Positions 7,360-17,636 of a stretch of DNA of 40,973 bases are shown one piece after another (position 1 is the stretch's first letter; each line of letters opens with the position of its first letter). The stretch comes from a virus. The stretch is from UHGV virus genome UHGV-0256613; one strand, given 5' to 3'. The notes below the pieces were generated by a model. The model was not told the DNA's origin. It saw only the letters and a program-made list of their open reading frames with translations, and ran no database searches. A program made the position numbers and the translations under genes.

Positions 7360-7853
7360 TAAGCCCCCACGTAATTCCCTGAGAGATACCACTCTTCACC
7401 TGATGCAGCCCGCTTACTGCTTTTCCGTAAACACCGTTCACGACGTGCCAGAAAATTGTTTCGTTCTGGCTGGGAGTGGCTTTCACGGAATGCCGCCATC
7501 CACACCGTTGCAGCACGACGGTATAAGCCCCTGGACTCCAGTTCTTCCGCCTGGCGGGTCAGGCACAAAATCACCCGGGGATCGTTAGTGCCGACATAGA
7601 AATTGCGCACAGGTCTGGTTTCACGAACTGGTTGTGGTTCCGGCTCCTGCGCTCTCTCAGTCAGGCGTGGGAAATGTCTGCGTGTATCTCCTTCACAACG
7701 GTGAGCCACACGCCCACTCTGACGTAACTTGCTTGCTGACTGCAGAACGCGCTGCCGTGAGTAACCTGCAAAAGCATCCGCAATGTCTCCGGAAGTACAC
7801 CCCGGATGGGCTTCAATGAATTTCTGAACTTCATTCAAAAGACTCATGATCAC
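7359..7853 (-). CDS. hypothetical regulatory protein (possible PerC-like C-terminal region)
   Basis: 164 aa; helix-rich N-terminus; C-terminal LTRQAEELESRGLYRRAATVWMAAFRESH recalled as PerC-like; low certainty on family. Confidence 0.55.
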   Translation of the reverse strand: MIMSLLNEVQKFIEAHPGCTSGDIADAFAGYSRQRVLQSASKLRQSGRVAHRCEGDTRRHFPRLTERAQEPEPQPVRETRPVRNFYVGTNDPRVILCLTRQAEELESRGLYRRAATVWMAAFRESHSQPERNNFLARRERCLRKSSKRAASGEEWYLSGNYVGA

Positions 7854-8668
7854 CCCCTGAATCCTGCCGGGATCTGGCTGTAGTCCACGTTGTCGTAACT
7901 GGCTTTGAAGTACGGGTCCTCGCGTCTGGCTGCAGATACCGCAGGAACTTCCCAGAATTCTTCGAAATGACGATCCGGACCAAAGAACGTGACAGCCTGT
8001 TTCACAAATTGTGTGCCGCTGTTACCCATCGCAGATACCCAGCCCGCGTAGCGTTTCACACCTTCCAGCATGGTTTCGGGGTTTACTCCCTCATTCAAAC
8101 GGGCTTTCCAGGCTTTGAAGGCTGCAGATTTTGAATTGCCACCAGCACGTTTGGGATATGCCAGCCATGCCTGCTCAAACTCCGGAGAGTATTCCGGTCG
8201 GTTTGAACGAACTCGCACGGACTCATCAACTGATGCACCAACAGCTATTGGTTCATTGACTGGTTCTTTGACTGGTTCAAAAGAGTGACTGGTTCTGGGT
8301 GAATCTCCTGCACTACCCCCTGGTGCAACTCCTGCACTACCTGGTGAATTTGCTGCACCAGATAGTGAATTATTTGCACTACCCCCTAGTGAATCTCCTG
8401 CACCATCCAGATGAAGGAGATAGATATTACTTGAGTTACCTTTTTCACCTTTCCGGGTGACTTTTTTTACCAGCCCGGACTCACAAAGGGCCGCAATATG
8501 ATTCATCACAGAACGTTTGCTAATTTCGCACTGGTCAGCAATATGCTGGTAGCTGGGCCAGCACTCACCCTGATCGCTGGCATTATCAGCCAGCTTGATC
8601 AGAACCAGTTTTCGCAATGGATTACCCACTCGAATTTTCATCGCTTTAACCATCAGCTCCATACTCAT
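7850..8668 (-). CDS. replication initiator (O-like, N-terminal HTH) with iterons inside the coding sequence
   Basis: 272 aa; N-terminal HTH (PSYQHIADQCEISKRSVMNHIAALCESGLVKK); low-complexity Gly/Ser/Ala linker encoded by the tandem repeats; lambda-O-like arrangement. Confidence 0.7.
   Translation of the reverse strand: MSMELMVKAMKIRVGNPLRKLVLIKLADNASDQGECWPSYQHIADQCEISKRSVMNHIAALCESGLVKKVTRKGEKGNSSNIYLLHLDGAGDSLGGSANNSLSGAANSPGSAGVAPGGSAGDSPRTSHSFEPVKEPVNEPIAVGASVDESVRVRSNRPEYSPEFEQAWLAYPKRAGGNSKSAAFKAWKARLNEGVNPETMLEGVKRYAGWVSAMGNSGTQFVKQAVTFFGPDRHFEEFWEVPAVSAARREDPYFKASYDNVDYSQIPAGFRG
8299..8410. repeat. five tandem imperfect 21-24 bp direct repeats (candidate ori iterons) followed by an AT-rich stretch
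   Basis: Units GTGAATCTCCTGCACTACCCCCTG / GTGCAACTCCTGCACTACCTG / GTGAATTTGCTGCACCAGATA / GTGAATTATTTGCACTACCCCCTA / GTGAATCTCCTGCACCATCCAG, inside the replication gene. Confidence 0.55.
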
Positions 8669-10612: not shown

Positions 10613-11287
10613 ATGAAAACAGTCCATGACATCCGGCGGTCTAACGCCAGAAAACTGAGAGATGGTGTTGGCGGGAATTCTTCCTTTGCCACCATGATTG
10701 ATCGCGAGCCAACCCAGACCAGCAGGTTTATGGGAGATGGTGCTACTAAAAATATCGGTGACAGCATGGCACGGCACATCGAAAAATGTTTCGACCTGCC
10801 TGTCGGATGGCTTGATCAAGAACACCAGACAACAAACATCACAAAAAAACCTGATGTTTCAATTACTAACAAACAAATAACGTTAGTCCCTGTCATATCA
10901 TGGGTACAGGCCGGAGCATGGAAAGAAGTTGGCTATTCTGAGGTTGATTTGAGCACAGCAGAAACTTATCCCTGCCCTGTACCCTGTGGCGAAATGACTT
11001 ATATCTTGCGGGTGATTGGTGATTCAATGATTGATGAGTACCGCCCGGGAGACATGATTTTTGTTGATCCTGAAGTCCCTGCCTGCCACGGTGACGACGT
11101 TATTGCATTGATGCACGATACAGGCGAAACCACCTTCAAGCGGTTGATAGAAGATGGAACACAGCGTTACCTCAAAGCATTAAACCCAAACTGGCCTGAA
11201 CCTTACATTAAGATCAACGGTAATTGCTCTATAATTGGTACAGTGATTTTCTCAGGAAAACCAAGAAGATACATAATAAAGGCCTAA
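10613..11287 (+). CDS. cI: CI-type repressor (HTH plus LexA-like S24 peptidase domain)
   Basis: 224 aa; C-terminal autocleavage-type domain (VIGDSM...DMIFVDPEV...GDDVIAL); divergent from cro. Confidence 0.85.
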   Translation: MKTVHDIRRSNARKLRDGVGGNSSFATMIDREPTQTSRFMGDGATKNIGDSMARHIEKCFDLPVGWLDQEHQTTNITKKPDVSITNKQITLVPVISWVQAGAWKEVGYSEVDLSTAETYPCPVPCGEMTYILRVIGDSMIDEYRPGDMIFVDPEVPACHGDDVIALMHDTGETTFKRLIEDGTQRYLKALNPNWPEPYIKINGNCSIIGTVIFSGKPRRYIIKA

Positions 11288-15573: not shown

Positions 15574-16170
15574 ATGATGCCTGCTGAACCTAAAACCTAT
15601 AAACGCAAATCAACGCAATTTAAGCCACTAACCGCAATGCAGGAGGCTTATTGCCAGTCATACATCAAAACGCCTGAAAACCAGACTCAGGCAGCGATTA
15701 ACGCAGGATTCTCCCCAAATACAGCGGCAGTTAAAGCCAGTGTCATGATGCGCGATGAACGCATTCAAAAACGGATTGCCGAGTTGATGGAGGAGCGCAA
15801 CAAACGAATGCGCGTCAGTGCCGATTACGTTCTCATGCGCCTGGTGGAGATCGACCAGATGGACGTGATTGATATCCTCAATGACGATGGGAGCCTTAAG
15901 CCAATCCGCGAGTGGCCGAAAATCTGGCGCACTACGCTTAGTGGCTTTGATCTGTCATCGACCATCATGAACATGAACGAGGATTCGATAGAGACAATTC
16001 TCAAAAAAATTAAATGGCCTGACAAGGTGAAGAACCTCGAACTGATTGGTAAGCACGTCGACGTCAATGCATTCAAAGAACGCCTGGATGTTAATGTGAA
16101 TGTGACAATTGCTGATCGCATAGCGGCAGCCAGGAAGCGACTCAAAGAACGTCAGGATGGTAATCAGTGA
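15574..16170 (+). CDS. terminase small subunit
   Basis: Basic helix-rich protein immediately upstream of, and overlapping, the large terminase; ORF track extends upstream to 15496 through the terminator hairpin. Confidence 0.8.
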   Translation: MMPAEPKTYKRKSTQFKPLTAMQEAYCQSYIKTPENQTQAAINAGFSPNTAAVKASVMMRDERIQKRIAELMEERNKRMRVSADYVLMRLVEIDQMDVIDILNDDGSLKPIREWPKIWRTTLSGFDLSSTIMNMNEDSIETILKKIKWPDKVKNLELIGKHVDVNAFKERLDVNVNVTIADRIAAARKRLKERQDGNQ

Positions 16171-17636
16171 CAGATACAGCGTTATCTCCTGAAGAGCAGT
16201 TGATCGAGGATATTGCAGGGTTCACTCACGATCCGCTTGGCTATGCCCTCTATGCGTTCCCGTGGGGGGAAGAGGGGACTGAACTGGCACATGCTACCGG
16301 CCCACGTCAGTGGCAGGCTGATGCGTTCCGAGAGATACGTGATCACCTGCAGAATCCAGAGACGCGCTATCAGCCGCTTATGCTGGCACGCGCTTCTGGT
16401 CACGGTATTGGTAAATCCGCATTCATCTCAATGCTGATCAACTGGGGCATGTCCACTTGCGAGGATTGTAAGGTCGTGGTGACCGCCAACACCGACAACC
16501 AGCTACGAACGAAGACCTGGCCGGAAATTATCAAGTGGTCGAACCTTGCTATCACGAAAGACTGGTTTACCTGTACCGCTACTGCGATGTACAGCAATGA
16601 TCCTGGGCACGACAAGCGGTGGCGAGCTGACGCAATCCCCTGGTCTGAGCACAACACTGAGGCATTCGCCGGACTACACAACGAGCGCAAACGCATCATC
16701 GTGGTATTCGATGAAGCGTCGAACATTGCGGATCTGGTGTGGGAAGTTGCTGAGGGTGCGCTTACGGACGAAGACACTGAGATTATCTGGGTGGCGTTCG
16801 GAAACCCTACACGTAATACCGGGCGTTTTCGCGAATGTTTCCGCAAATACAAACACCGCTGGAAAACTGCGCAGATTGACAGCCGGACGGTGGAAGGTAC
16901 TAACAAACAGCAGTTGCAGAAATGGGTTGATGACTACGGGGAAGACAGCGACTTCGTTAAAATCCGTGTGCGCGGCATATTCCCTGATGCATCTGAATTG
17001 CAGTTTATCCCTACCGGTCTTACTGATGAGGCAATGAAACGGGTGGTAACCGCTGCGCAGGTTGCACATGCTCCGGTGATAATCGGCGTTGACCCGGCAT
17101 ACTCCGGAGTTGATGACGCTGTGATATACCTGCGGCAGGGGCTGCACAGTAAGGTGCTGTGGACTGGCAACAAGACCACTGACGATCTGATAATGGCGAA
17201 GCGTATCGCTGACTTTGAAGACCAGTACCAGGCTGACGCAGTGTTCATCGACTTCGGTTACGGAACTGGTCTGAAGTCAATCGGTGACGGCTGGGGTCGT
17301 ACATGGCAACTTGTTCCGTTCGGTGGCGCGTCTACTGACCCGCAGATGCTCAACAAGCGTGGGGAGATGTTCAACTCATGCAAGACATGGCTGAGGCTGG
17401 GCGGGATGCTGGATGACCAGGAAACAGCAGACGACCTGTCGACGGCAGAGTACAAAGTTCGCGTGGACGGTAAAATCGTTATCGAACCGAAGGAAGATAT
17501 CAAAGAGCGACTTGGGCGTTCGCCGGGTAAAGGTGATGCGCTGCTGCTAACGTTCGCCTTCCCGGTAGCCAAGAAAACTAATGACCCACGGCAGCAGCAG
17601 GGGAAAGCTATTACTGAGTACGATCCGTTTTCATAA
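16167..17636 (+). CDS. terminase large subunit
   Basis: 489 aa; Walker A-like GHGIGKS; GTG start overlapping the small-subunit stop (GTGA). Confidence 0.9.
   Translation: MTDTALSPEEQLIEDIAGFTHDPLGYALYAFPWGEEGTELAHATGPRQWQADAFREIRDHLQNPETRYQPLMLARASGHGIGKSAFISMLINWGMSTCEDCKVVVTANTDNQLRTKTWPEIIKWSNLAITKDWFTCTATAMYSNDPGHDKRWRADAIPWSEHNTEAFAGLHNERKRIIVVFDEASNIADLVWEVAEGALTDEDTEIIWVAFGNPTRNTGRFRECFRKYKHRWKTAQIDSRTVEGTNKQQLQKWVDDYGEDSDFVKIRVRGIFPDASELQFIPTGLTDEAMKRVVTAAQVAHAPVIIGVDPAYSGVDDAVIYLRQGLHSKVLWTGNKTTDDLIMAKRIADFEDQYQADAVFIDFGYGTGLKSIGDGWGRTWQLVPFGGASTDPQMLNKRGEMFNSCKTWLRLGGMLDDQETADDLSTAEYKVRVDGKIVIEPKEDIKERLGRSPGKGDALLLTFAFPVAKKTNDPRQQQGKAITEYDPFS

Follow-up and report, generated by a model that had tools for sequence, protein, structure and literature searches.

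A probable replication origin in the linker codons of the initiator gene of an SfV-like lambdoid prophage

In lambda and the Shiga toxin (Stx) phages, the iterons of the replication origin lie in the middle of gene O, so that extra iterons add residues to the O protein, and iteron mutations abolish plasmid replication (PMC7466680). Gene 18 of P22 and phage L carries iterons of its own, which have been read as an origin on comparative grounds (PMC8022706). Plasmid origins need the repeats of their unwinding element for activity, and winged-helix Rep proteins recognize these repeats, in single-stranded form, by their sequence (PMC4081077). Here, we describe a locus in the virus genome UHGV-0256613 (a stretch of 40,973 bp, which we call the window) where five iterons and an adjoining conserved element lie inside a replication-initiator gene. 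We are fairly confident, from comparative sequence analysis, that positions 8243–8404 of the minus strand are the replication origin of an SfV-like lambdoid prophage, set within the linker codons of its own initiator gene. These limits follow from the extent of the DNA-constrained block, that is, the iteron array plus the adjoining element. The locus is probably an unannotated member of an established class of origins, those with iterons embedded in the initiator gene.

The probable origin is thereby narrowed to about 160 bp for a very common prophage module, found in SfV, mEp460, cdtI and Stx2c-converting phages and with relatives in the Stx2 phage phi24B. To know the origin together with its specificity pairs is useful for studying or blocking induction. 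In addition, the locus is a case of dual coding, in which the codons of a disordered linker leave room for a DNA element that acts in cis, and it suggests a signature for such origins: synonymous sites that do not vary, an inversion of the usual variability by codon position, and a motif that persists when the reading frame changes. Specialists may also be interested in the family-wide invariant element by the iterons as a concrete candidate site of unwinding. We found no description of an origin at 8243–8404 in the searchable literature, whose coverage does not extend to the SfV genome paper.

The iteron array and its conserved partner element

The initiator gene, its domains and the sites discussed below are the following:
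7850–8668, minus strand: initiator gene (272 amino acids), taken from the list of open reading frames, with the array and the conserved element inside it
8405–8668, minus strand: codons 1–88, winged-helix DNA-binding domain (Pfam, AlphaFold2 model and fold matches)
8389–8403, minus strand: iteron 1, GTGCAGGAGATTCAC
8365–8379, minus strand: iteron 2, GTGCAAATAATTCAC, with the arms retained and the central 5 bp different
8344–8358, minus strand: iteron 3, GTGCAGCAAATTCAC
8323–8337, minus strand: iteron 4, GTGCAGGAGTTGCAC
8299–8313, minus strand: iteron 5, GTGCAGGAGATTCAC, 3 bp from the conserved element
8243–8298, minus strand: conserved DNA element, CCA-GAACCAGTCA-CTCTTTT-GAACCAGTCA-AA-GAACCAGTCA-AT-GAACCA, coding for RTSHSFEPVKEPVNEP
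8286–8295, 8269–8278 and 8257–8266, minus strand: GAACCAGTCA 10-mers, with a partial copy at 8249–8254
8279–8285, minus strand: T-tract CTCTTTT
amino acids about 89–156: initiator linker, predicted disordered (AlphaFold2 model)
amino acids about 160–225: small helical C-terminal domain of the initiator (AlphaFold2 model)

The first-pass annotation of this DNA had proposed five imperfect direct repeats within the initiator open reading frame, encoding its linker, and both statements are borne out. Tandem Repeats Finder places the array at 8299–8403 (period 24, 4.6 copies, score 77), and a second repeat search gives the same units. Each 15-bp unit is an imperfect palindrome, GTG(C/A)A-N5-T(T/G)CAC (GTGmA-N5-TkCAC), and successive units are spaced by 24/21/21/24 bp, about two helical turns. 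The exact-arm pattern has five matches in the window, all of them within the array, and none in 50 shuffles. When up to three mismatches are allowed (<=3), GTGCAGGAGATTCAC has eight matches against 1.1 expected, a number reached by none of 100 shuffles. The array takes up codons 89–124, between the winged helix and the C-domain; the encoded peptide, GAGDSLGGSANNSLSGAANSPGSAGVAPGGSAGDSP, is predicted to be disordered, with predicted local distance difference test (pLDDT) scores of 30–48. No internal promoter-like site was found in the region. Somewhat more confidently than the origin itself, we regard the 15-bp sites as probable initiator-binding sites.

The DNA-constrained block does not end with the array but extends to codon 142 (8243). 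This part holds a second array, overlooked in the first-pass annotation, which consists of three copies of GAACCAGTCA and a partial fourth (8249–8298) with a spacing of 17/12/12 bp. The initiator family to which the gene belongs has 5,426 database hits, in phages of Escherichia, Shigella, Salmonella, Klebsiella, Pectobacterium and Vibrio. Across all N-domain types and several unrelated C-domains, the element is near base-for-base identical: CCAGAAyCAGTCACTCTTTTGAACCAGTCAwwGAAyC... codes for R[TI]SHSFEPVxEP, and its start always lies 2–3 bp past the last iteron, whatever the N-domain type. When five wobble bases were allowed to vary in a scan, 121 of the 123 family members found had identical codons. 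Vibrio crassostreae phages share an island of about 37 nucleotides at 97% identity; it recurs in gp14 of Pectobacterium phage ZF40, followed by a DnaB-like helicase, and in the phi24B ‘O’ gene, followed by a primase-helicase. By contrast, the invariant N-terminal peptide LRKLVLIKLADNA has a codon entropy of 0.6–2.2 bits per site, although the element half of this entropy comparison is biased by the way in which loci were gathered and is not relied on. The 12-bp array also varies between loci, reading EPVNEP, EPVKEPVNEP or EPVKEPVKEPVNEP (copy-number loci including L083, L099, L111 and L176).

The AT content of the element (0.52–0.66) exceeds that of the gene (mean 0.39–0.61) in all 27 helix classes. 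Given that the element is conserved as DNA and AT-enriched, and given the precedent of plasmid Rep proteins, we read it as probably an unwinding element or a single-strand contact site. The first-pass annotation had instead chosen the other flank as the partner of the repeats:
8411–8470, minus strand: AT-rich segment, coding for the wing and the last part of the recognition helix

Part of that claim stands. The segment is 65% AT, compared with 52% over the whole window, which puts it at the 92nd percentile among 60-bp windows, and the least stable 30 bp of duplex between 7000 and 10500 lies around 8410–8450 (nearest-neighbour free energy, z about 2). The enrichment is modest, however, and the segment precedes the repeats in the gene sense, on the opposite side from the conserved block. 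As a partner of the origin it is not supported: its synonymous-codon identity (0.48–0.62) equals the gene background, and the AT content of this upstream flank tracks the base composition of each relative, whereas the conserved flank is 8243–8298. A role of 8411–8450 in melting may nevertheless exist. The AT tract of lambda has an AT content well above that of both flanks here (65% and 56%). A terminator-like hairpin with a T-run (TCACCTTTCCGGGTGA CTTTTTTTAC) lies at 8445–8470 on the plus strand, antisense to the initiator, and chance alone would give one site of this kind in the stretch.

Selection on the DNA and the case for an origin

For comparison, relatives were gathered by the protein search, from loci around a Klebsiella-type homolog and three odd homologs, and by DNA-pattern scans. 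A search of viral contigs with the window protein returned near-identical genes only, and the diversity came from the Klebsiella-type homolog and the DNA patterns. Among ten orthologs with 70–90% protein identity, synonymous-codon identity is 0.94–1.00 over codons 89–142 (8243–8404) and 0.96–1.00 over the element, as against 0.32–0.65 elsewhere in the gene; the low values hold even for the perfectly conserved peptide PLRKLVLIKLADNASD. Over codons 89–142, amino acid identity is only 0.66–0.89. That is, the wobble bases are held more tightly than the residues they encode.

The same inversion is visible by codon position. In 68 unique sequences with the five-unit layout, variability at first/second/third positions is 0.17/0.13/0.85 in the winged helix, an ordinary coding pattern, but 0.37/0.30/0.08 in the array, where third positions are the least variable, and 0.22/0.26/0.27 in the adjoining conserved element. 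Within the array the arms are fixed, and variation falls in the spacers and the central 5 bp. Moreover, the motif can survive a change of reading frame: in 11 relatives (e.g. L142, L169, L252, L282, L208 and L178), one iteron is shifted to a different frame, with a spacing of 23+22 bp and the peptide VVQEIHQ instead of GSAGDSP. The half-sites vary independently, GTGCA with TTCAC being the commonest pair, which fits a dimeric protein reading degenerate half-sites rather than a hairpin. Taken as a comparative pattern, these results indicate that selection acts at the DNA level on the five 15-bp sites and on the adjoining block (about 55 bp).

Iteron type also goes with the type of DNA-binding domain. 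Across 142 unique genes compared, GTGmA-N5-TkCAC occurs only with a recognition helix of the CEIS[KRE]RSV type, and genes of this type have 2–9 copies of the motif in the linker codons and none elsewhere. Genes with other helices have a repeat of their own at the linker position: GGGGCAGGAGCTGCCC with GRSTVK, CCTrTGCC...AAAAGCAC with CSKSAV[KR], and TGTAGGCCCA.AAAGCAC with DRSTVR. Such linkage between helix and repeat could come from adjacency alone, but recombinants sharpen the argument. Three metagenome contigs (L160–L162) are 98–99% identical to the window downstream of the array/conserved element and only 67–68% identical in the N-domain, and they carry other repeat types; the crossover lies at the conserved element. 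Conversely, the phi24B ‘O’ gene and L162 have the N-domain and repeats in common while their C-domains are unrelated. The N-domain and the repeats thus travel together as a single cassette, which is how an initiator and its iterons would be expected to behave. The central idea of the first-pass annotation, that the repeats are cis-acting sites of an origin, gains strong comparative support from all of this (frozen synonymous sites, a motif kept across frames, pairing with the helix and exchange at a joint). The annotation had named repeats missing from, or unconserved in, orthologous initiator genes as grounds for refutation; the repeats turn out to be conserved there.

More tentatively, and with the balance tipping slightly the other way, the block of about 40–55 bp could be a universal origin core of the whole initiator family: a sequence-specific element for unwinding or single-strand docking, with cassettes of iterons and their binding domain swapped on one side, helicase-recruiting domains swapped on the other, and the centre acting as the recombination joint. 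We found no description of such a three-part swappable origin in the searchable literature.

The number of iterons is polymorphic among near-identical prophages, from 1–2 up to 9 units, and proteins of 242, 250, 272, 283, 294 and 302 amino acids (range to 305) differ only in unit number. In two viral contigs (L119 and L131), the initiator is frameshifted in or just before the array, giving products of 88 and 140 amino acids, which probably reflects prophage decay or misassembly at the repeats. A sister subfamily (viral contigs L134, L140 and L143–L146) lacks the SHSFEPV motif and has the same layout. Its palindrome, CCGTCAGAwTCTGAC, occurs at four sites, of which one is read in a different frame (HPSDSD vs TRQNLT), and after these sites an AT-rich 24-bp direct repeat, GATCCACAAGTAAATTCAAAACAT, is present twice.

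If 8243–8404 is the origin, the early rightward transcript would lead to synthesis of the initiator, and winged-helix dimers would occupy the five dyad sites on one helix face in a complex resembling the lambda O-some. This complex would open the adjacent element of 10-mers and T-tract, which might also be held as single-stranded DNA, and the C-terminal domain would recruit the helicase. The latter is presumably that of the host (DnaB–DnaC), given that the operon has no phage helicase or loader gene; in relatives with other C-domains, phage-encoded helicases lie downstream. Recruitment is the weakest step, since neither Pfam nor the PDB offers a relative of the C-domain.

Several points weigh against an origin at 8243–8404. 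The searchable literature yielded no binding, unwinding or origin-activity experiments for this initiator family, and the SfV and cdtI records have no rep_origin feature. No DnaA box or IHF consensus was found near the array. At 56% AT for the element (8249–8298) and 50% for the array, nothing here amounts to a strongly AT-rich tract, and the duplex is locally weakest on the flank opposite the conserved element. With regard to the proposed recruitment, the C-terminal domain matches no Pfam family even at E = 10, and neither sequence nor profile searches found a relative in the PDB. Some prophages have only 1–2 iterons, and these may be defective. Finally, much of the comparative set was collected with DNA patterns of the conserved element, and the figures on its near-invariance therefore rest mainly on the protein-based set and the wobble-free scan.

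The initiator gene is also present in records of 33–45 kb labelled as non-mobilizable ‘plasmids’ (NZ_CP148393.1, CP077666.1, NZ_CP019281.1 and NZ_CP118695.1). These resemble circular phage genomes, and they are accordingly no independent evidence of origin function.

Alternative explanations

The sites might bind the initiator and yet serve regulation, through autorepression, a roadblock to early transcription, titration or handcuffing, with the origin elsewhere. Plasmid iterons are generally known to be used in copy control and autoregulation as well (PMC3401445), and the array has no strongly AT-rich tract. In addition, the PerC-like gene downstream contains a single iteron-like site, GTGAAGGAGATACAC (7682–7696, minus strand), at a distance of about 600 bp from the array. 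This site shares the central GGAGA with the iterons and has one arm mismatch; matches of its quality are near chance (eight outside the array vs about four expected). However, with Tandem Repeats Finder no other repeat array or candidate origin appeared in the window. Furthermore, the iterons abut a second conserved repeat block at a fixed 2–3 bp in every N-domain type, which is the layout of an origin and not of an operator, and lambda, the Stx phages and P22/L have their origin at the equivalent position (PMC7466680, PMC8022706). We therefore consider purely regulatory sites unlikely.

Alternatively, the DNA, especially 8243–8298, could stay near-identical because recombination is frequent at this point, a mosaic joint, and the sequence would then do nothing in cis. 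Mosaicism is extensive among lambdoid phages (PMC2629481), and the element lies exactly where N- and C-modules exchange, as in the contigs L160–L162 and between phi24B and L162. Yet functional conservation would itself produce such a joint, and recombination alone does not keep wobble bases fixed between phages of Escherichia, Klebsiella, Vibrio and Pectobacterium when the flanking DNA is too diverged for blastn to detect. Nor does it account for a block that tolerates substitutions changing amino acids but not wobble changes, or for iteron arms that are conserved between variable spacers, a pattern typical of binding sites. Preservation by exchange at the joint is thus rather improbable.

A further possibility is that the repeats are a slippage-prone, low-complexity Gly/Ser/Ala linker with no role as DNA. 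The region is indeed predicted to be disordered, and the in-frame copy number runs from 1–2 to 9 among near-identical genes. A mere linker would not be expected to freeze synonymous sites while its amino acids change, to have third codon positions as the least variable, to retain a DNA motif in another frame with a different peptide, or to repeat a palindrome tied to the type of recognition helix, and this explanation is very hard to sustain. Synonymous constraint from an overlapping gene or a structured RNA is scarcely credible: alternative frames are open over the array in the window (8299–8460 on the plus strand, 8245–8379 on the minus strand), but none is consistently open among relatives (the best in 16 of 116 unique origin regions), and a structured RNA or DNA hairpin is met by no Rfam family at gathering score, a folding z-score of -1.0 against shuffles and half-sites lacking stem covariation.

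Initiator, operon and comparison with described origins

A Pfam scan assigns the initiator to HTH_36 (E 1.8e-11) and, more weakly, to DnaD_N, and PHROG 270, ‘replication initiation protein’, matches it with an E value of 2e-88. Some of the matching PHROG families are labelled ‘O-like’, in name only. The N- and C-terminal halves match different PHROG families, which marks it as a two-module protein. In the AlphaFold2 model, pLDDT is 77–89 for amino acids 1–88 and 30–48 for amino acids 90–156, and confidence is merely moderate over the C-terminal domain. The model predicts one winged helix only, with the recognition helix around CEISKRSVMNHIAAL and the wing around KKVTRKGEKGNSSNIYLLHL. A fold search returned only generic winged-helix matches, for the N-domain (E around 0.01–0.06), including the DnaD N-domain (2v79) and a plasmid Rep–DNA complex (5kbj). 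For the C-terminal domain, NCBIfam yields weak helix-turn-helix matches only.

The protein is 98.8–99.3% identical to the ‘replication protein’ orf39 of SfV and its counterparts in mEp460, cdtI and many Stx2c-converting phages, and the gene order around it agrees with that of SfV. The operon is that of a lambdoid early rightward region, with every gene on the minus strand, in the order cro, cII-like, Ash-like, an open reading frame of 78 amino acids, initiator, PerC-like, Dam, LexA-like, RusA, KilA-N-type regulator, HNH-like and Q. Among the downstream genes examined, none in the operon is a helicase, helicase-loader, P-like or DnaC-like gene. The repressor gene lies on the other strand:
10613–11287, plus strand: cI gene

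Only about 5 kb past cI, on the side of the leftward operon, there is an open reading frame resembling a terminase large subunit (16167–17636, plus strand). Its position may mean that the window spans a prophage end or junction, or that the gene order is unusual.

The first-pass annotation had likened the locus to lambda, and in layout the parallel is sound. As in the lambda origin within gene O, and in its 6-iteron variant in the Stx phages 933W and P27, dyad repeats occupy the codons of the linker that joins the DNA-binding N-domain to a C-domain for recruiting the replication machinery (a putative role here). The number of iterons varies in both cases (four in lambda vs six in Stx phages), changing the length of the linker (PMC7466680), and the putative origin is likewise placed downstream of cro and cII in the early rightward operon. 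The parallel does not extend to the components. Unlike lambda O, the initiator matches HTH_36/DnaD_N-like families and not Phage_rep_O; the iteron sequence here is GTGmA-N5-TkCAC; and there is no P gene, helicase or loader gene. Instead of the 40-bp strongly AT-rich tract of lambda, we find three 10-mers in a block of moderate AT content whose sequence is conserved family-wide.

Gene 18 of P22 and phage L is similar in that origin-binding proteins that are distantly related or unrelated have their own short repeats inside the coding region (PMC8022706), but there the initiator has a DnaB-type helicase (gene 12) as its partner, and both repeats and protein family differ. In the Bacillus phage SPP1, the binding sites of oriL lie inside gene 38, the gene of their own binding protein (G38P), next to an AT-rich region; the host phylum, the box sequences and the partners (the loader G39P and the helicase G40P) are different. 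With iteron plasmids (RK2 TrfA, F RepE), the locus has in common an initiator of the winged-helix type and iterons in tandem, next to which lie short direct repeats (PMC4081077). Their origins are intergenic and their initiators have two winged-helix domains, whereas here the repeats are intragenic and the protein combines one winged helix with an unrelated C-domain. Sequence and profile searches of the PDB detected no relationship to plasmid Rep initiators (RepA/RepE/TrfA/Pi). Judged by its sequence organization, the predicted origin is one that would act like a lambdoid or iteron-plasmid origin, outside the lambda O/P family.

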